From the NCBI GenBank assembly GCA_045536965.1, contig JAZSON010000012.1, forward strand, positions 147,889-211,888: DNA of 64,000 nucleotides, written 5' to 3'. The DNA is from Eubacteriales bacterium (GTDB lineage: Bacteria > Bacillota > Clostridia > Oscillospirales > SIG627). Position numbers and translations under genes: made by a program. The notes below the pieces were generated by a model. It was not told the DNA's origin and did not search any database. It was given only the letters and a program-made list of their open reading frames with translations. Below are positions 8,910-35,340 of this stretch, in pieces; the first letter of the stretch is position 1; each line of letters opens with the position of its first letter.

Positions 8910-10649
8910 TTATTTTCTTTTGGCTAATGCAACAAGTATGGCTGTAATGCCGACTCCGACAACTCCGATGACCGCCCAAAGATAAAACGGCGGTCCTTCT
9001 TTTTGGGGTGCTTTATCGGAAGATCCGTTCGCATCCCCGTCACCATCCTCTGGATTTTGTTCGACCCCGTCATCCGAAGGATCGTTTCCGTTGTCGTCTT
9101 CATCGCCTTGCGATGAATCCTCATCACCCGAATCATCCAATGTAGGCTCTTTATGATCCCCGCTTGGCTTGTCGGTATCGCCGCCAAGGGTTTCATCGGC
9201 TGCGCTTTCGTGATCGGTGCTTTCATGATCGATATTTTCATCGCCCGCGCTTTCGTTGCCCGCATTTCCGTTTTCGGCGCTTCCGTTGCCAATGTTTTCA
9301 TCGTCGGCGGTTCCACCGTTGCCGCCGGTTTCATTCCCGCCGGTTCCGACATTTTCATTTCCGCCGCCCGATTGCTGGGGCGCTTGGGTCACCGTTACTT
9401 CAAACTGAGTCGAATACCCTTGATAACGAACCGTAACCTCACGGGTACCGAGAATGGAAAAATCAAAAGTGTCGGCGGAAAATCCGCTCGTTACATCAGG
9501 TCCCGTACCGTTTGCCATCTGCAGTTTCAACACAAGACCTTTCAGATCAACGGCTGTATCTGCGGTGGTATAGGTCAATTTCTGCGGCAGCGTTTTCACC
9601 GTGATACCGACGTAGGGCGAATAAGCGGTCTGATGCATGGTCGGATAGGTAAAAATTTTGCTCTCCGTACCCGAAAAATCACCGATTGCGATATGACTTT
9701 CGGAAAATTTCTTTTGATAAAATCCGAGCGACGGCAGGGTCGATGAGCCACTTAAAAAGAAGTCGGTGCGAATACCCGATTCCTGGTCGTCCCAGGTCGC
9801 GTCCAAACCGTACCATCTGCCATCCTCCATCTGCACCAAATTCCACATATGCCGTTCAGCCGAGGAGGAAGAGGTCACACCGTATCCCGTAACAAGAATA
9901 CACGGGATATCGGCCGCATCACACAAAAGTTTGATGGCTTTGGCGTAGCCCTCGCACACCGATTTGTGAGCCGACTCAAATACGCTGATAGCATCGTGAG
10001 CCTTGGCATCCGAAAAATTGCGGTCATAAGAGGTACTTTGGCAAACAAACGTATGAATGGAGCTTAGTTTTTCATACCGCGTGTTACCGCTCGCCTGAAA
10101 ATCCGATACCGCTTGCTTGAGTTTATTGATATGCGTTCCCGTGTTTCCCTGATAAACGGTTTTAATGGCAACCTTCATCTTAACCGCGGTGGTTTTCATG
10201 ACATACTGATTGTCGGGCGTTTTTTCCTCCCGCGCACTGATGCCGAAACTGCAAGACGGATCAGATGCGGATTCGCTGCTTAGATCCAAAAAGAAAATAG
10301 CGGGACAATCAGCAAGCAGAGCATCAAGCGCCGCCTGCAAATGCGGCATGATATCCTGCATCAGCGCATTGACGATGCGGTTCGCCTGCGATTCACTCGG
10401 TCTTGTGCTTTGCGGAAGCGAAACAAGCGGTGTTTTCAACGGTATTTGAATTTCGGCAGGTATATCGGTCTTATTGTAAAGGGCGGTTTTCAGCACGTTA
10501 TATACGTTTTTTTCTTCACTGTCCAACTGATCATAAAAGAAAGAACTGTCCGCCGATGCGGCTTCTCCCACAAAAGCAGATTGCACCGAAACAAAAGCAA
10601 AAATCAGACAAAAAACAAGAACAGGCACAATCTTTTTCAAACCAAACAC
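8910..10649 (-). CDS. Secreted, membrane-anchored transglutaminase-like cysteine peptidase-fold protein
   Basis: N-terminal signal peptide, transglutaminase core (CEGYAKAIKLLCDAADIPC...HMWNLVQ...GLDATWDD) and a beta-rich domain. These are followed by a G/N/E/D-rich acidic linker and a C-terminal TM anchor (FYLWAVIGVVGVGITAILVALAKRK). Confidence 0.8.
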   Translation of the reverse strand: MFGLKKIVPVLVFCLIFAFVSVQSAFVGEAASADSSFFYDQLDSEEKNVYNVLKTALYNKTDIPAEIQIPLKTPLVSLPQSTRPSESQANRIVNALMQDIMPHLQAALDALLADCPAIFFLDLSSESASDPSCSFGISAREEKTPDNQYVMKTTAVKMKVAIKTVYQGNTGTHINKLKQAVSDFQASGNTRYEKLSSIHTFVCQSTSYDRNFSDAKAHDAISVFESAHKSVCEGYAKAIKLLCDAADIPCILVTGYGVTSSSSAERHMWNLVQMEDGRWYGLDATWDDQESGIRTDFFLSGSSTLPSLGFYQKKFSESHIAIGDFSGTESKIFTYPTMHQTAYSPYVGITVKTLPQKLTYTTADTAVDLKGLVLKLQMANGTGPDVTSGFSADTFDFSILGTREVTVRYQGYSTQFEVTVTQAPQQSGGGNENVGTGGNETGGNGGTADDENIGNGSAENGNAGNESAGDENIDHESTDHESAADETLGGDTDKPSGDHKEPTLDDSGDEDSSQGDEDDNGNDPSDDGVEQNPEDGDGDANGSSDKAPQKEGPPFYLWAVIGVVGVGITAILVALAKRK

Positions 10650-11987: not shown

Positions 11988-12160
11988 TGTGTTTTATGTA
12001 AATTGCATAAATACGGGTAGGAATTTTGTGGAAGGATACGAAATTATTTTTACCCCCTTGTTTCCGTGTATATGTTATGTTATCATATATTCACAGGGAG
12101 AAAAGGAGTTCTCCCGAAACAAAACAACAGAATATTAAAAAGGAGGCAAAATCATGAAGA
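11988..12160 (+). repeat. Cassette leader, copy 1 (near-identical to 29374..29558)
   Basis: By eye, the ~115 nt from ggaaggatacgaaattat to the ATG differ from copy 2 at only about 4 positions. Includes a candidate promoter, a GGGAG/CTCCC hairpin and an AGGAGG RBS. Confidence 0.85.
12058..12086 (+). promoter_or_regulatory. Candidate sigma-A promoter inside leader copy 1
   Basis: TTGTTT, 17 nt, then TGtTATCAT (extended -10). The same element is present in copy 2. Confidence 0.4.
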
Positions 12161-12219
12161 GTTTACGCAATCTCAACACAGCGCCCCCCGATGTTCTTCC
12201 TGAGGAAAGGAGAATTTGA
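12154..12219 (+). pseudogene. 21-codon stump homologous to the N-terminus of the 1193-aa secreted protein
   Basis: MKSLRNLNTAPPDVLPEERRI* sits at the same position in the leader as MKNARKLTTQSSGQ... of ORF 29552. The K..R.L.T pattern is shared and the stop lies 1 nt before the next gene's ATG. Confidence 0.45.
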
Positions 12220-12220
12220 T

Positions 12221-13363
12221 ATGTTTGATAAACCACGATTGATATCCAAAAGAAAAATCGTCAAACGATGCCTTTTGGGGTTGATTGCCGTGTATTTAAT
12301 CTTTACTATGATTTTGGGCATACCTTTTGTTTATACGTTTAATAACGAAAAGTTTATTTTCTCGGGTTGGGTAGAAGCTCCCGGCACTCTTCCTCTCTTT
12401 CTTTCCCCAAACGGAAAGCTGGATGAGCCGGAGCGCTTTTTCTCCATTATCGCTCCGGTTTACTCCGAAGTCGATTTGACCGAGGACGGTTCGACAGAAA
12501 GTGATGGTTTGCACCATATCCTCGCCTGGAAGCAAACGTTATTGGGGCAGAATTTTACCCGTTCGCTGGGATACGATATTACTATCCATAACGGTACTGT
12601 CGGTTTTGGCGAATTTTATGCGCACAGCGTAACGCTGATTCCCGGCTACTATCCCGAGGGTAATTCCGGTCGTCCCAAACATATTTTTACCGACCACCTT
12701 CTCATCCATCAAAAGAGTTTTTCGGAAAACGAGTCCGACTCTTGGAAAACATCTGTTAATGCGTATATAACAGGTCCAACAAAGCCTCAGGTTTTATTGG
12801 AAAGCGGTGAGATTGTGGATTATGATCAAGCTGATATACCCTTTAGAGGCAAATATGTTCGTTCATATTCCTCTCCCTTTTTCCCTGTTTTGGATTTTGG
12901 CGAAGCATATTGGGGAATTCTTATTTTATTTTTGTTGCCGGTATGCTTTTCGTTGATTGCCGTTCTTATTCCCCTTGAAACACCGAAGTTTTCCCACAAA
13001 AAAATGGTGCGGCGAGGTCTGCTGATCAAAGGATTGGTAGTTTTGCTTACGCTTGTTTTTCTGCCAATGCCAGCAATATTTTACGGATATGCTCCCCCGA
13101 CATACAACACCGACAGCATCTTTGATATTATCCGTTGGCTGACACCGATCATTTCCATCCCGGCGCTTGCGGTTTGGGTGGCATCGTTTAAGAATAAGAA
13201 ATTTGCTCCCGTCGTAGCCGCCGCGATCATGGTTCTGTGCCTGTATCAACCCCTTGCAAACCTCATTTGCCTGTTTGCCACCGTCATTGCATGGGGATAT
13301 TTTGCCCACGGTGTATGCCGATTCTTCGGACGCTTCAGAAAGGCAAAAGCCAAAGCGGTGTGA
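12221..13363 (+). CDS. Polytopic membrane protein, cassette paralog A (uncharacterised family)
   Basis: Start at ATG 12221 (RBS ggaaaggag). Architecture: N-terminal TM, ~190-aa variable segment, RSYSSPFFPVLDFG motif, then 4 TM helices. It ends in WLTPIISIPAL..FKNKKFAPVVAAAIMVLCLYQPLANLICLFATVIAWGYFAHGVCRFFGRFRKAK, shared with B, C and D. Confidence 0.75.
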   Translation: MFDKPRLISKRKIVKRCLLGLIAVYLIFTMILGIPFVYTFNNEKFIFSGWVEAPGTLPLFLSPNGKLDEPERFFSIIAPVYSEVDLTEDGSTESDGLHHILAWKQTLLGQNFTRSLGYDITIHNGTVGFGEFYAHSVTLIPGYYPEGNSGRPKHIFTDHLLIHQKSFSENESDSWKTSVNAYITGPTKPQVLLESGEIVDYDQADIPFRGKYVRSYSSPFFPVLDFGEAYWGILILFLLPVCFSLIAVLIPLETPKFSHKKMVRRGLLIKGLVVLLTLVFLPMPAIFYGYAPPTYNTDSIFDIIRWLTPIISIPALAVWVASFKNKKFAPVVAAAIMVLCLYQPLANLICLFATVIAWGYFAHGVCRFFGRFRKAKAKAV

Positions 13364-13474
13364 GTGATTTGCGTATAAATAACAACGGAATGAAGAAAAG
13401 GAGGATAGACCATGATGAAAAAAGCTTCTAAAATCACCGCCTGGATCTGGCGCGGCGCAGCACTCCTTTTGGCA
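13133..13474 (+). repeat. Junction module: conserved C-terminal TM block, 48-nt spacer with RBS, then conserved N-terminal block
   Basis: Aligns with 34018..34356. Partial copies lie at 14159..14409 and 35041..35262. About 90% nt identity by eye. Confidence 0.8.
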
Positions 13475-14389
13475 TTCTACCTTTTGGTTGCACTTGTTGC
13501 GGGAATTCCGTTTTTTAATACAAATGTTGGACTGCAATTTGAATATGAATATGACCATTTCCCTCCAAAAGTTTTATCTTTTCTTTCCGTGAATCAAGAG
13601 GTTGGATGGAATGTGTATACAGCATCATTGGGGGTTGATTTGGATCTTTTAAGCAGGCCGAAATATATGTGTGCCGCGTCACCAACAATAACCTCAAATG
13701 TTAGCCTCGGTAGTCACACCATACTTCACACCGACAATCTTGTTTTTAAAAAATATGACGATAAATCCATTTTATTAGAAGGCATAGCCCACACTCGGAT
13801 TATAGGGCTGACAAATCCGCGATACATTACATCGGAAGGCGAATTAAAAACCATTGATTCAAAAGAACTCCCATTATTTACCCGTTCCTATTCCAGTCCG
13901 ATGCTCCCCGTCATCGATACGGGCGCTGATATTTGGGGTATGCTCTTGCTTACCGCCCTCCCGATCCTTTTGTCTTTTGTATATAGCCGTTTTTGCCCGC
14001 AATTTACACTTTCGCAACAAAAGAGAGTTTTGTGTTTTGGTTGGCGGATGAAGCTTGTTTTTGCGATATGTTTGATGTCGGTTTTCTCGGCAACGGCTTT
14101 ATTTTATGTGCCGCATGATAATATTCTGTGGGATTATCCATGGATTTTTGCCATTCTCCGTTGGCTGACACCGATCATTTCCATTCCGGCACTGTCGGTT
14201 TGGGCGGCATCCTTTAAGAATAAGAAATTTGCCCCCGTCGTTGCCGCCGCGATCATGGTGCTTTGCCTGTATCAGCCGCTCGCAAACCTCATTTGCCTGT
14301 TTGCCACCGTCATCGCCTGGGGATATTTTGCCCACGGCGTGTGCCGCTTTTTCGGACGCTTCAGAAAGGCAAAATCGGAAGCGGTGTGA
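13412..14389 (+). CDS. Polytopic membrane protein, cassette paralog B
   Basis: N-terminus MMKKASKITAWIWRGAALLLA is shared with C and D. The TM core is nearly identical to D (34294..35265), while the segment between TM1 and RSYSSPMLPVIDTG is strongly diverged. Confidence 0.75.
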   Translation: MMKKASKITAWIWRGAALLLAFYLLVALVAGIPFFNTNVGLQFEYEYDHFPPKVLSFLSVNQEVGWNVYTASLGVDLDLLSRPKYMCAASPTITSNVSLGSHTILHTDNLVFKKYDDKSILLEGIAHTRIIGLTNPRYITSEGELKTIDSKELPLFTRSYSSPMLPVIDTGADIWGMLLLTALPILLSFVYSRFCPQFTLSQQKRVLCFGWRMKLVFAICLMSVFSATALFYVPHDNILWDYPWIFAILRWLTPIISIPALSVWAASFKNKKFAPVVAAAIMVLCLYQPLANLICLFATVIAWGYFAHGVCRFFGRFRKAKSEAV

Positions 14390-14407
14390 GTGCATTGCGT
14401 ATAAAAA

Positions 14408-14440
14408 CAAAAACGACGGGATTCCGTCGTTTTGTTTTTT
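14408..14440 (+). terminator. Rho-independent terminator ending cassette locus 1
   Basis: aaaACGACGGgattCCGTCGTtttgtttttt. Confidence 0.75.
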
Positions 14441-14555
14441 GTAACGCCTCATCCGTCCACTTCGTGTGCCACCTTCTCCCGCCGGAGAAGGCGAATTCGA
14501 AGGCGGGTACATCCATTATGACTTATTTTTACCCGAAGAATTTGCTATACTTTGC

Positions 14556-15574: not shown

Positions 15575-17506
15575 TTATCTTACCTTATCACCGTTTTTGG
15601 CATCGGGGGAAGCAAACATGACGCGCACGTCCTCCTCGCCCGAAGCAAGAATCATGCCGCAGCTTTCCACACCGCGCAGCTTGGCGGGCTTTAAGTTGGC
15701 CACGACGACAACCTTTTTGCCGATCAGATCCTCGGGCTTATACCACTTGGCAATGCCCGACACGATCTGTCTGACCTCCAAGCCGATGTCAACCTTCAGA
15801 CAAAGCAGCTTATCGGATTTTTTCACGGGCTCACAGGAAAGCACCGTGCCCACCCGCAGATCAACGGCGGCAAAATCGTCGATGGTGATCTCGGGCGCTA
15901 TGGGTGCGATTTGAGAAGCGGCCGCTTCGCGGGCTTTTGCCTCCATGTGCGCGGTGATGCGGTCGGTCATATCCTTTTCATCCAAACGGGCAAACAGAAT
16001 TTCTCCGCTTTCCACCGTTTTGCCTGCTTCCAAAACATGAAACTGCAGGGTCTTGTCCCAATCGGCTTCAACACCCAGATAGGAAAGCACCTTTCCTGCC
16101 GCCGTGGGCATAAAGGGGGTCAACAGGGTTGCGCTGACCCGCAGGGCTTCGAGCAAATGATACAACACGGTGTTGAGGCGCACGTTCCCCTCTTCGGTCT
16201 TTGCCAAGATCCAAGGGGTCGTTTCGTCGATATACTTGTTGGCGGCAGAAAGAAGGGTAAATACCGCATCCACCGCTTCACCCGTTTTGAATTCATCCAT
16301 CAGGGAGGCATACTGCTCGGCCGTTTTTTTGCAAAGAGCAGAGAGATTTTCGTCTACAGGTTCAAGCGCGGCAGGCGCGGGAATGACACCGCCGCGGTAT
16401 TTATGGGTCATGGCAAGGGTGCGGCTGACAAGGTTGCCCCAAATATTCGCAAGCGAGGTGTTATATTTGGCGATGACGTTTTCGTAGGTGATGACACCGT
16501 CGTTGATATACGGCATTTCGGACAACAGGTAGAAGCGCACGGCATCGATGCCGAAGAAGGATACCAGCTCGTCGGCATAAATGGTGTTGCCCTTGGATTT
16601 GGACATTTTGTCCTGTCCCGCCAAAAACCAAGGATGCCCAAACACCTTTTTGGGAAGGGGCAGATCGAGCGCCATCAAAAAGATAGGCCAGTAAATCGTA
16701 TGGAAACGCACGATATCCTTGCCGATGATGTGCACGTCGCAGGGCCAATACTTTTGGAAAAGCGTGTCGTCACTCTCTCCCGTCGGGTTGTACCCGAGTG
16801 CGGTGATATAGTTGGTCAGCGCATCCAGCCAAACGTAAATGACGTGCTTGGGGTCAAAGGAAACGGGAACACCCCAGGTAAAGGTGGTGCGGGAAACACA
16901 CAGGTCGGTAAGCCCCGGCTTAAGAAAATTGTTGATCATTTCCTTTTTGCGCGCTTCGGGCATGATAAACTCGGGATTTTGCTCGATGTACTCTTCCAGC
17001 TGCTTTTGGTATTTGGTCATTTTGAAGAAATACGCTTCTTCTTTTGCCTTGCTTACCGGCGCGCCGCAATCGGGACAAACACCGTTTGTAATTTGGGAAT
17101 CGGTATAGAAGGTTTCACAAGGCGTGCAGTACCAGCCCTCATATTCGCCTTTATAAATATCGCCCTTTTCATACAGACGGTCGAAAATGGCCGAAACCGC
17201 CTTTTCATGGTAATCGTCGGTGGTGCGGATGAATTGATCGTAGGACGCACCCATCAAATCCCATACTTCTTTGACCTCGGCGGCCACACGGTCAACGTAT
17301 TCCTTGGGTGCAATACCCGCCTTTTCGGCGTATTCCTGGATTTTCACACCATGTTCATCGGTGCCGGTCAAAAAGAAAACGTCCTTGCCGCGCAGCCGCT
17401 GATAACGGGCAATGGCATCGGCAAAAACGACCTCGTAGGTGTTGCCGATATGGGGCTTGCGGGAAGTATAGGCAATCGCTGTAGTCAAATAATACTTCTC
17501 TTTCAT
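15575..17506 (-). CDS. metG: Methionine--tRNA ligase with C-terminal tRNA-binding (EMAP-like) domain
   Basis: AIAYTSRKPHIGNTYE (HIGH region), KMSKSKGN (KMSKS motif), a CPxC...CPDC zinc knuckle, and C-terminal VDLRVGTVLSCEPVKKSDKLLCLKVD. Confidence 0.95.
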   Translation of the reverse strand: MKEKYYLTTAIAYTSRKPHIGNTYEVVFADAIARYQRLRGKDVFFLTGTDEHGVKIQEYAEKAGIAPKEYVDRVAAEVKEVWDLMGASYDQFIRTTDDYHEKAVSAIFDRLYEKGDIYKGEYEGWYCTPCETFYTDSQITNGVCPDCGAPVSKAKEEAYFFKMTKYQKQLEEYIEQNPEFIMPEARKKEMINNFLKPGLTDLCVSRTTFTWGVPVSFDPKHVIYVWLDALTNYITALGYNPTGESDDTLFQKYWPCDVHIIGKDIVRFHTIYWPIFLMALDLPLPKKVFGHPWFLAGQDKMSKSKGNTIYADELVSFFGIDAVRFYLLSEMPYINDGVITYENVIAKYNTSLANIWGNLVSRTLAMTHKYRGGVIPAPAALEPVDENLSALCKKTAEQYASLMDEFKTGEAVDAVFTLLSAANKYIDETTPWILAKTEEGNVRLNTVLYHLLEALRVSATLLTPFMPTAAGKVLSYLGVEADWDKTLQFHVLEAGKTVESGEILFARLDEKDMTDRITAHMEAKAREAAASQIAPIAPEITIDDFAAVDLRVGTVLSCEPVKKSDKLLCLKVDIGLEVRQIVSGIAKWYKPEDLIGKKVVVVANLKPAKLRGVESCGMILASGEEDVRVMFASPDAKNGDKVR

Positions 17507-25095: not shown

Positions 25096-26223
25096 ATGCT
25101 CAAATTCATTTTCCCCGAAAACGGCACTTGTGTGCATAAATACGATGGCTCAGAACAAAACAGCGGCATCACGGTTGCCGTCAAGATGCAGAGCGACCAA
25201 GATGCTTTCATCACCATAAACAACCAAAACGCCCGCTATGAAAACGGTTTTTTCGTTGCCGATGTTTTCTTTGACGGCTATCGCAACACAATCCATGCAA
25301 AAAATGAAAAAACAGGAGAAGAAAAAAGCATTGTCGTATATTATCTGCCGAACGCTTCGGACAAATACCGCATTTCGGTGGACGATAACATTCTGTTTTT
25401 ACAAGATCTGACCAAAAATCAAGAAAAGTACACCTCCATCTTTGACAACTCCTATTTGGCGATATACAAAAAGGCCCACGATACCTACGGCACCAAAGTG
25501 CATATCAATCTGTTTTATGCATACAACGAGGATGCCATGGCATATTTTAAGGAGCACAAGGAATATTTCGACCTTTCCATGATGACCGATCGGTACAAAA
25601 CGGAATTTGAGCAAAATGCCGATTGGCTTCGATTTTCCATTCATAGCCATGCCGAATTTCCGCCGCGCCCCTACGCTTTTGCTTCCCGCGAAACCATCGA
25701 TGCCGATATTCGCAAAATCCACCGCGAAATTCGGCGGTTTGCAGGCGATGCTTGTCTGTCCAACGTCTGTACCACCCATTTCGGCTCGGGCAACCGCGAA
25801 GTCGTGCGGGTGCTCCGTTCCCACGGCTACCGCGCACTGACGGGGTATTTTACCCTGGACGGCAAGGGCGATCCGCTGGTAGCATATTATTATACCCCCG
25901 AAGAAATCGCCCATGTGGAGCATCGCGATTTTTGGCGCGACGAGGAACAGGACGTCACTTTCGGCAGAATCGACACCGTGTTAAACACCCTCAACCCCGA
26001 TAACCTTATTTCCACACTGGAGGCCATCAAGGCCGATAACGGCCGCCGCGGTTTCCTGTCCATGTTAATTCACGAACAGTATTTTTATACCGATTACCGC
26101 AACCATTTGCCTTACTTTGAAGATCTGATCATGAACGCCTGCCGCTTTGCCCATGAAAACGGCTATGCACCCTCGTTTATCGGTGAAGCCTGCTTGGAAG
26201 AATTTATAGGGAGAAAATTATGA
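25096..26223 (+). CDS. Hypothetical protein, tandem paralog 1 (possible polysaccharide-deacetylase-like fold; low certainty)
   Basis: Clearly homologous to the next ORF (shared blocks VYYL, DNxxFLQDLT, YLAxxxxAHxxxGTKVxxNLFY, DLSMxTDxYKxEF, DWL, HFGS, RDxW, HEQY). Family not recognised with confidence. Confidence 0.45.
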   Translation: MLKFIFPENGTCVHKYDGSEQNSGITVAVKMQSDQDAFITINNQNARYENGFFVADVFFDGYRNTIHAKNEKTGEEKSIVVYYLPNASDKYRISVDDNILFLQDLTKNQEKYTSIFDNSYLAIYKKAHDTYGTKVHINLFYAYNEDAMAYFKEHKEYFDLSMMTDRYKTEFEQNADWLRFSIHSHAEFPPRPYAFASRETIDADIRKIHREIRRFAGDACLSNVCTTHFGSGNREVVRVLRSHGYRALTGYFTLDGKGDPLVAYYYTPEEIAHVEHRDFWRDEEQDVTFGRIDTVLNTLNPDNLISTLEAIKADNGRRGFLSMLIHEQYFYTDYRNHLPYFEDLIMNACRFAHENGYAPSFIGEACLEEFIGRKL

Positions 26224-35297: not shown

Positions 35298-35340
35298 AAG
35301 GGTCTGTTGCGACCGATAGGTTGCAACAGACCCTTTTTGT
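35298..35340 (+). terminator. Rho-independent terminator ending cassette locus 2
   Basis: AAGGGTCTGTTGCgaccgataggttGCAACAGACCCTTtttgt. Confidence 0.75.

Follow-up and report, generated by a model that had tools for sequence, protein, structure and literature searches.

Immunity genes against secreted toxins can lie in recombining arrays. Tandem immunity genes of the T7SS (type VII secretion system), esaG and tipC, feature conserved 5′ and 3′ blocks around a variable centre, and exchange sequence over the 3′ end of one gene, the spacer and the 5′ end of the next (PMC9484751). In Staphylococcus aureus, TsaI (DUF443) is a polytopic membrane protein that gives immunity to the toxin TspA and occurs in many tandem divergent copies; its conserved helices are proposed to contact a membrane partner, and its variable part to meet the toxin (PMC9484751). 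Toxin-less arrays of immunity-type genes have been described as polyimmunity loci (PMC3482391). On the toxin side, WapA of Streptococcus suis, a demonstrated polymorphic toxin, has an N-terminal Sec signal and DNRLRE domain (PMC12704120). Here we describe a family of six-helix membrane proteins encoded by four genes, A to D, in a 64,000-nucleotide stretch of an Eubacteriales genome (contig JAZSON010000012.1, positions 147,889 to 211,888; hereafter the window), where C and D directly follow the gene of a large secreted lectin protein. The family is new and very narrowly distributed, but the phenomenon it displays is of a known kind: a membrane module held constant by purifying selection and by homogenization among paralogs, joined to predicted ectodomains that differ widely from copy to copy.

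Like the TipC and EsaG arrays, the genes form strings of non-identical paralogs 3′ of the gene for a secreted protein, which in those systems is a polymorphic toxin. TipC is also membrane-bound and outward-facing, and neutralizes a toxin that acts extracellularly (PMC9484751). The four paralogs moreover show the esaG/tipC type of mosaic, in which exchange runs across conserved 5′ and 3′ blocks that enclose a variable centre. However, A to D have no sequence or Pfam relationship to TipC or EsaG. TipC is a lipoprotein and EsaG is cytoplasmic, whereas the proteins described here have six predicted helices and a 3′ block that encodes a three-helix membrane module; the large protein has a Sec signal and lectin domains and is not an LXG or WXG100-dependent T7SS substrate. 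TsaI resembles the family as a multi-helix membrane protein in which one helix block is conserved and the rest is variable, but its conserved block is N-terminal, little recombination has been detected in it, and it bears no homology to the family. With WapA/RHS systems the locus shares a Sec signal plus DNRLRE N-terminal module, homologous over ~500 residues, and a downstream gene in the same direction. Unlike those toxins, the large protein lacks RHS/YD repeats (no PF05593 or PF25023 match; DNRLRE alone is common with RHS/WapA) and a recognized toxin domain, and its C-terminal half comprises a PPC-like segment, a Ricin lectin and then an uncharacterized domain.

Four membrane-protein paralogs with a constrained C-terminal module

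The four paralogous genes are intact, lie on the + strand and form two tandem pairs: A (12221-13363; 380 aa) and B (13412-14389; 325 aa) at locus 1, C (33202-34245; 347 aa) and D (34294-35265; 323 aa) at locus 2. B, C and D are identical to the database proteins P0001, P0007 and P0002, respectively, and a tblastn search with all family members found no further copy or fragment in the window. When aligned, the last 75 residues are near-invariant in A to D and the central parts are very different. These C-terminal modules are encoded at 13136-13363, 14162-14389, 34018-34245 and 35044-35265. Within them, a 44-residue core, FKNKKFAPVVAAAIMVLCLYQPLANLICLFATVIAWGYFAHGVC, occurs exactly four times (13187-13318, 14213-14344, 34069-34200 and 35095-35226, all +), between flanks that vary as an initial sequence-only reading of the window had described.

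The DNA that encodes this core is far from identical. Across its 132 nt the four copies differ at 17 sites, and 17 of the 17 are synonymous third-position changes, which is far beyond chance since a random change would be nonsynonymous in about three of four cases. A and B, for example, differ by six synonymous and no nonsynonymous changes over the 18 codons from 13211 and 14237, exactly as first counted. Over the whole 75-codon module, pairwise synonymous divergence (dS) is 0.26-0.52 and nonsynonymous divergence (dN) 0.012-0.046, which gives a dN/dS of 0.03-0.18 (Nei-Gojobori). The peptide of the module is thus under strong purifying selection, as the sequence-only reading had proposed. Antisense open reading frames (ORFs) of 210, 137 and 118 aa overlap the modules and spacers on the - strand (12926-13558, 14099-14512 and 34128-34484). 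We rejected these as coding sequences, because the substitutions are strictly third-position in the + frame.

Outside the module, conservation is patchy. B carries a conserved N-terminal and helix-1 block (13412-13533), a variable ectodomain (about 13534-13798) and a helix 2-3 region (13799-14161). B and D are 92-93% identical in the helix 2-3 region and 38-39% identical in the variable segment, close to the one third estimated by eye for a pair whose cores are near-identical. The juxtamembrane motif RSYSSP..ID/NTG is conserved; its RSYSSP half holds for A, B and D, while C carries RSFSTA instead. A has the most divergent body of the four and is the paralog closest to the one distant relative, P0010. 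Its start at 12221 is preceded by a ribosome-binding site (RBS), GGAAAGGAG, 8 nt upstream, and an in-frame ATG at 12191 offers an alternative start. A strong RBS precedes each of the four genes.

Topology was predicted from Kyte-Doolittle hydropathy and the positive-inside rule, which give six helices per protein. The K/R-rich stretches, comprising the N-terminus, the helix 2-3 loop, the FKNKK loop and the RFFGRFRKAK tail, all fall on one side; the long segment that follows helix 1 carries a net acidic charge, and no K/R occurs in the helix 3-4 loop. Since the K/R-rich loops all lie on the other side, the variable domain is predicted to be outside the cell and the N-terminus in the cytoplasm, consistent with the extracytoplasmic placement first proposed. 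The predicted architecture is therefore a cytoplasmic N-terminus, a β-rich ectodomain of 130-180 residues after helix 1, and a three-helix C-terminal module. An AlphaFold model of B, built on a 10-sequence alignment, reached a confidence (pLDDT) of 56 overall and a β-rich ectodomain at pLDDT 70-80, and a Foldseek comparison of this model with the PDB returned no match with E <1.

The family is exceedingly rare. Nine sequence clusters were found among 5.8 billion proteins, and a hidden Markov model of the family detected only three clusters among 1.84 billion cluster representatives. GTDB species representatives, IMG/VR and JGI metagenomes gave no relative when scanned for the peptide patterns of the family, the family profile had no match in the PDB, and A to D and P0010 had no Pfam, NCBIfam, PADLOC or PHROG match at E<=0.1. 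Scans of GTDB representatives, in which the organism itself was not sought, turned up neither the family nor the C-terminal domain of the large protein. The methionyl-tRNA synthetase encoded nearby (15575-17506, -) has no companion in its 90% cluster, out of about 15 billion proteins clustered, and the source is therefore a very rarely sampled lineage. When two NCBI contigs (300 kb and 144 kb) are taken as one assembly, the source organism has at least six recorded family copies, P0003 and P0004 in addition to A to D, and one recorded gene for the large protein.

Homogenized ends and exchanged centres

Divergence is distributed very unevenly along the genes. Between A and each of B, C and D, dS is saturated along the whole gene except the module. 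Uniform vertical divergence would give uniform dS, and so cannot account for this profile. The 11 known members fall by gene body into A alone; B, D and P0003-P0006; C, P0008 and P0009; and the distant P0010. Their module sequences instead group by lineage, cutting across body types. P0006 has a B-type body and P0009 a C-type body, and their modules are 97.6% identical in DNA but only ~75% identical to the window copies; B and C, despite their different body types, have the window-type module in common. P0008 gives a further example. Found in other metagenomes, this allele of C has a dS of ~0 along most of its length, but its module is 93.3% identical in nucleotides to those of A and D each and 89.0% to that of C, from which it differs with a dS of 0.2-0.7. 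Sites within the module are interleaved, with six supporting AB|CD, seven AD|BC and three AC|BD, a pattern that fits short conversion tracts, although repeated synonymous mutation could contribute to it.

The similarity also extends beyond single genes. The A-B spacer (13364-13411), which carries an RBS and no terminator, matches the C-D spacer (34246-34293), which likewise has its RBS inside, at 46 of 48 nt. The full unit of A module, spacer and B 5′ block (13136-13533) is 90.7% identical to 34018-34415 over 398 nt; the sequence-only reading had recognized that this junction recurs at A/B and C/D, but had put its length at ~340 bp. The low dS of the module, the conflict between module and body groupings, the module of P0008 and a tract that crosses a gene boundary together indicate that the gene ends were homogenized among paralogs, although not very recently. 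The sequence-only reading had set purifying selection against recent gene conversion as alternatives, and its exclusion of the latter was wrong in substance, correct as it may be that the events are not very recent. The module is under purifying selection and is also homogenized among paralogs, and both processes act. The locus thus offers a general caution, that concerted evolution may be at work even where the peptides are identical and the DNA has diverged only at synonymous sites.

The variable centres have the opposite profile. For the pair B and D, the flanks have a dS of 0.05-0.4, against 1.1-1.9 across residues 46-148, where dN is 0.3-1.1. The step is sharper between C and P0008, where dS is ~0 at residues 16-75 and at most 0.1 at 162-266, but rises to 1.1 or saturation at about residues 76-150. 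In these variable segments dN/dS is 0.2-0.5. With dS climbing alongside dN, and their ratio remaining below 1, the patches are old diverged alleles brought in by recombination, and the data fit the import of old cassettes rather than fast evolution in place. Of the two processes first suggested for the exposed domain, modular exchange is accordingly visible in population alleles, and positive selection is not, dN/dS being below 1.

Chimeric alleles, which the sequence-only reading had recommended seeking in metagenomes, are indeed present there, P0008 among them, with swapped centres between conserved flanks. In L007, the spacer, 5′ block, module and terminator around P0005 are 88.6-96.3% identical to the B position, and the centre is unalignable. 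In L005 the gene behind the C-like P0008 is D-like and encodes yet a different ectodomain, in L004 a further paralog comes after P0009, and in L003 P0006 stands alone behind a leader of the same type. The family alleles in these independent metagenomes are intact. In the P0010 lineage, which is better sampled, 24 of the 27 polymorphic residues among 12 alleles fall at ectodomain positions 28-150 (Fisher p about 1e-9), and the polymorphism consists of dimorphic blocks reshuffled in many combinations. The base composition of the segments differs as well. The initial hand counts of 18 G or C in 60 nt at 13501-13560 (variable segment) and 34 in 60 at 14221-14280 (conserved module) were exact, and third-position GC content (GC3) is 0.34-0.46 in the ectodomain segments, 0.58-0.66 in the module and 0.53-0.64 in neighboring housekeeping genes. 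The low ectodomain GC3 suggests that the cassettes come from a compositionally different pool, or that codon selection on them is weaker.

Taken together, these comparisons make it very probable that the family evolves by recombination between its conserved end blocks. A diversity-generating retroelement was considered and rejected, as the differences are not adenine-specific and include indels, and no template/variable repeat pair exists: apart from the paralog blocks and the promoter the window contains no repeats of at least 40 nt, reverse transcriptase genes not having been specifically searched for.

The secreted protein, its pairing with the family and locus 1

Locus 2 is organized as an operon on the + strand that comprises, in order, a promoter and leader (29378-29551) matching the leader of locus 1, the gene for the large protein (29552-33133; 1193 aa), a GC-rich hairpin that is possibly an attenuator (33152-33172), C, D and a terminator-like inverted repeat (35297-35336; 40 nt, 90% by self-BLAST). 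C starts 68 nt after the large gene, in the same direction. By Pfam and NCBIfam profiles, the large protein starts with a long Sec-type signal and a DUF7948-like region; next come a DNRLRE/CBM96 domain (residues 324-495; E 1.9e-21), a PPC-like segment and a Ricin-B lectin (633-790), which also has ricin matches in the PDB, and last an uncharacterized region (785-1193). It has no LPXTG or other recognizable anchor.

All 30 homologs returned by a database search align only to residues ~14-516 of the large protein. They are mostly clostridial RHS-repeat proteins of 2000 residues, some with AHH or Ntox-type ends; the others include lipase, Ricin+M23 and Ricin+C70 peptidase proteins, and proteins whose ends have no assignment. 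The first ~500 residues, judged by these alignments, form a constant delivery module with variable ends, and this combination of a conserved N-terminal trafficking region with varied C-terminal ends among homologs is that of polymorphic toxins. The C-terminal domain had no counterpart in the GTDB genome scan. A word-indexed search with its 409 residues (31904-33133) returned zero matches, but also missed the source protein, P0011, a limit of the tool that calls for caution with negatives for sub-fragments.

This C-terminal region contains the motifs YIETHG and MMACSQL. YIETHG and KWTIMMACSQLN lie at 32090-32290 of the window (residues ~847-912), each predicted to follow a β-strand, and the patterns YIE[TG]HG and W.I..AC.QLN are kept between the large protein and an ortholog that is 46% identical. 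The order and spacing of the His-Gly and Ala-Cys pairs recall the His/Cys dyad of clan CD (caspase-like) peptidases, which hints at a caspase-like hydrolase; a single-sequence model of the domain reached a pLDDT of 42, and neither profile nor fold comparisons supported the idea.

The same ortholog shows that the linkage of the two genes is conserved. In L001, which comes from another organism, the gene of this ortholog is followed after 17 nt by that of P0010, the one distant member of the family. Because a family member directly follows the gene of a large-protein ortholog in another assembly, the pairing of large and membrane genes is conserved in two lineages, and the large gene thus has the conserved, same-direction downstream partner that characterizes polymorphic toxins. 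Two relatives of the large protein with other C-terminal ends are instead followed by genes for other membrane-tethered extracytoplasmic proteins, namely a 145-aa lipoprotein, whose gene overlaps, and a 692-aa protein bearing both a signal peptide and a C-terminal anchor.

Locus 1 carries the same regulatory region without the large gene. Its promoter and leader (11992-12153, +) include a putative -10 box (TATCAT, 12081-12086), a hairpin (12096-12115) and the RBS of the former large gene, and are 85.6% identical to 29378-29577, a figure that rises to ~97% in the central 150 nt. In L003, P0006 has a similar leader in front of it. The leader of locus 1 is followed by a 21-codon ORF, MKSLRNLNT... 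(12154-12219, +), whose first ~9 codons align with the start of 29552-33133, and the overlapping segment 12183-12223 resembles 33160-33204, the right half of the hairpin behind the large gene, a match that is short and only suggestive. The shared promoter and leader, the ~9 codons of the large gene and the sequence resembling half the hairpin, followed by A and B, make an orphan array left after deletion of the large gene the simplest reading of locus 1. The A-B operon ends at an intrinsic terminator (14410-14433, +; a 10-bp stem, then a T run) that is kept 3′ of P0005 in L007. As a toxin-less tandem array locus 1 corresponds to a polyimmunity locus, provided that its genes are immunity genes. 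A GGGAGAA...TTCTCCC hairpin with an AAGGAG-like loop occurs in the leaders at 12096-12115, at 29493-29512 and at ~65-85 of L003, and may be a regulatory leader element; Rfam detected no RNA element in either leader of the window.

The site of locus 2 also varies between strains. In L003, positions 1193-1309, downstream of the solitary P0006, are 92% identical in reverse orientation to 29063-28947 of the window, at the start of the MntP gene upstream of locus 2. By this alignment, one oppositely oriented family gene replaces the whole operon of large gene, C and D in the L003 strain, so the site is structurally plastic. Both loci lie amid housekeeping genes (MntP, GpsA, an aldo-keto reductase, a hexapeptide acetyltransferase, TatD and MetRS); among the ORFs next to them no mobile-element gene was noticed, although the window was not screened for such genes. 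Two adjacent ORFs of ~370 aa upstream of gpsA (25096-26223 and 26220-27332, +) have no Pfam match at E<=1e-5. Upstream of locus 1, and with no obvious link to the paralogs, a 579-aa surface protein (8910-10649, -) features a signal peptide, a transglutaminase-like core, a Big_3 domain, a long low-complexity tract that is acidic and rich in G/N/D/E, and, at the C terminus, a membrane anchor.

Immunity and its alternatives

We favor, at roughly an even chance of its being right, the explanation that the six-helix membrane proteins provide immunity, protecting the cell against the secreted lectin protein of the operon and against the variants of competitors. This reading draws on the conserved linkage of the family to a secreted protein whose N-terminal module is common with RHS toxins, from the excess of family copies over large genes together with the orphan loci (locus 1 and the solitary P0006), and from the concentration of variation in the predicted extracellular part. 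The linkage also suits the arms-race function that was first proposed for these genes. Both the toxicity of the large protein and protection by the membrane proteins are what we infer from the anatomy, selection pattern, mosaicism and gene pairing observed here. In such a system, the variable, membrane-distal part of the ectodomain would act at the membrane's outer face by binding or blocking the effector, and the invariant helix module with its RSYSSP..ID/NTG motif would serve as a scaffold or as the contact to a conserved membrane partner. Locus 2, with promoter, effector, C and D, would be a complete set, and locus 1, with promoter, nine-codon remnant, A and B, an orphan array. Homologous recombination and gene conversion very probably take place between the conserved 5′ block and the 3′ module; tracts of conversion that cover the 3′ module, the spacer and the next 5′ block homogenize the ends among paralogs, and old diverged centres are swapped between them.

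Several observations weigh against this explanation. The membrane family matches no known immunity family (DUF600/EsaG, TipC, DUF443/TsaI or Imm), defence model or solved structure. Residues 785-1193 of the large protein have no Pfam, PDB or database match apart from the ortholog, and contain no recognizable toxin domain, while DNRLRE/CBM96 and Ricin domains are also found in ordinary glycan-degrading enzymes (PMC9971899). The gene pair was inspected in a single independent instance, adaptive diversification is not demonstrated by a variable segment with dN/dS below 1, and the AlphaFold models are poor (pLDDT 56 for B and 42 for the C-terminal domain of the large protein).

The main rival is replacement of a target or receptor, which we consider unlikely. 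The membrane proteins would then be surface docking molecules for the lectin protein or for a phage, producers would carry variants that are not recognized, and the helix module would have a needed membrane function. BSAP toxins of Bacteroidales provide the precedent: these diffusible secreted antibacterial proteins are encoded beside a variant surface protein that determines resistance, as their genes adjoin replaced, non-targeted orthologs of the target (PMC4999547). An exposed variable ectodomain on an invariant, strongly constrained membrane module agrees with such a role, as does the position of the genes next to that of a secreted lectin protein, and dimorphism with reshuffled blocks is typical of receptor variation. 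However, BSAP systems differ in phylum, in the MACPF fold of the toxin and in their outer-membrane barrel or O-antigen target, and involve a single replaced gene rather than an array. At least six co-resident copies and toxin-less arrays suit an immunity collection better, and the absence of the family from all other sampled bacteria implies that its function is not broadly needed. A docking site for phage also sits poorly with the lack of any phage or defence signal, and a phage or defence-system origin of the family was itself rejected, there being no PHROG, PADLOC or IMG/VR signal.

A lesser rival, and a distinctly improbable one, is that the membrane proteins are dedicated partners that anchor, mature or help to export the large protein, with the ectodomain holding it on the surface. 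The genes are co-transcribed, their pairing is kept in two lineages, and the large protein has no LPXTG or other recognizable anchor of its own. Yet orphan copies persist where there is no large gene (locus 1 and L003), several highly divergent ectodomains occur per single large protein, and that protein is equipped with a Sec-type signal peptide of its own. Decay of redundant duplicates under neutrality, or an artefact of assembly, is essentially excluded: low ectodomain GC3 (0.34-0.46) would suit decay, but pseudogenization is rejected by four intact frames, each with a strong RBS, by dN/dS of 0.2-0.5 rather than about 1 in the variable segments, by ectodomain positions conserved in 11 of 11 members and by intact alleles in independent metagenomes, and collapse of repeats in assembly, another objection the sequence-only reading raised against itself, by DNA copies that differ at 8-12% of module sites.

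The immunity explanation admits a more specific version, which we hold to be doubtful. In an uncultured clostridial lineage, the locus would mediate a previously undescribed form of contact-independent antagonism, in which a lectin-guided Sec effector with a new, possibly caspase-like enzyme domain is opposed by a new two-part class of immunity protein, whose helix module shields a conserved membrane target and whose swappable ectodomain captures effector variants. With one effector, two immunity genes and a two-gene orphan array, the system is small and therefore directly testable. If the immunity explanation holds, the locus would add a new protein family and a new type of effector to competition among Gram-positive bacteria, beyond the T7SS/LXG and RHS systems investigated to date, and would offer a clean natural example of how immunity specificity can be rebuilt, in which the constant module and the 5′ block double as scaffold and, for the exchange of an exposed specificity domain, as recombination handles.

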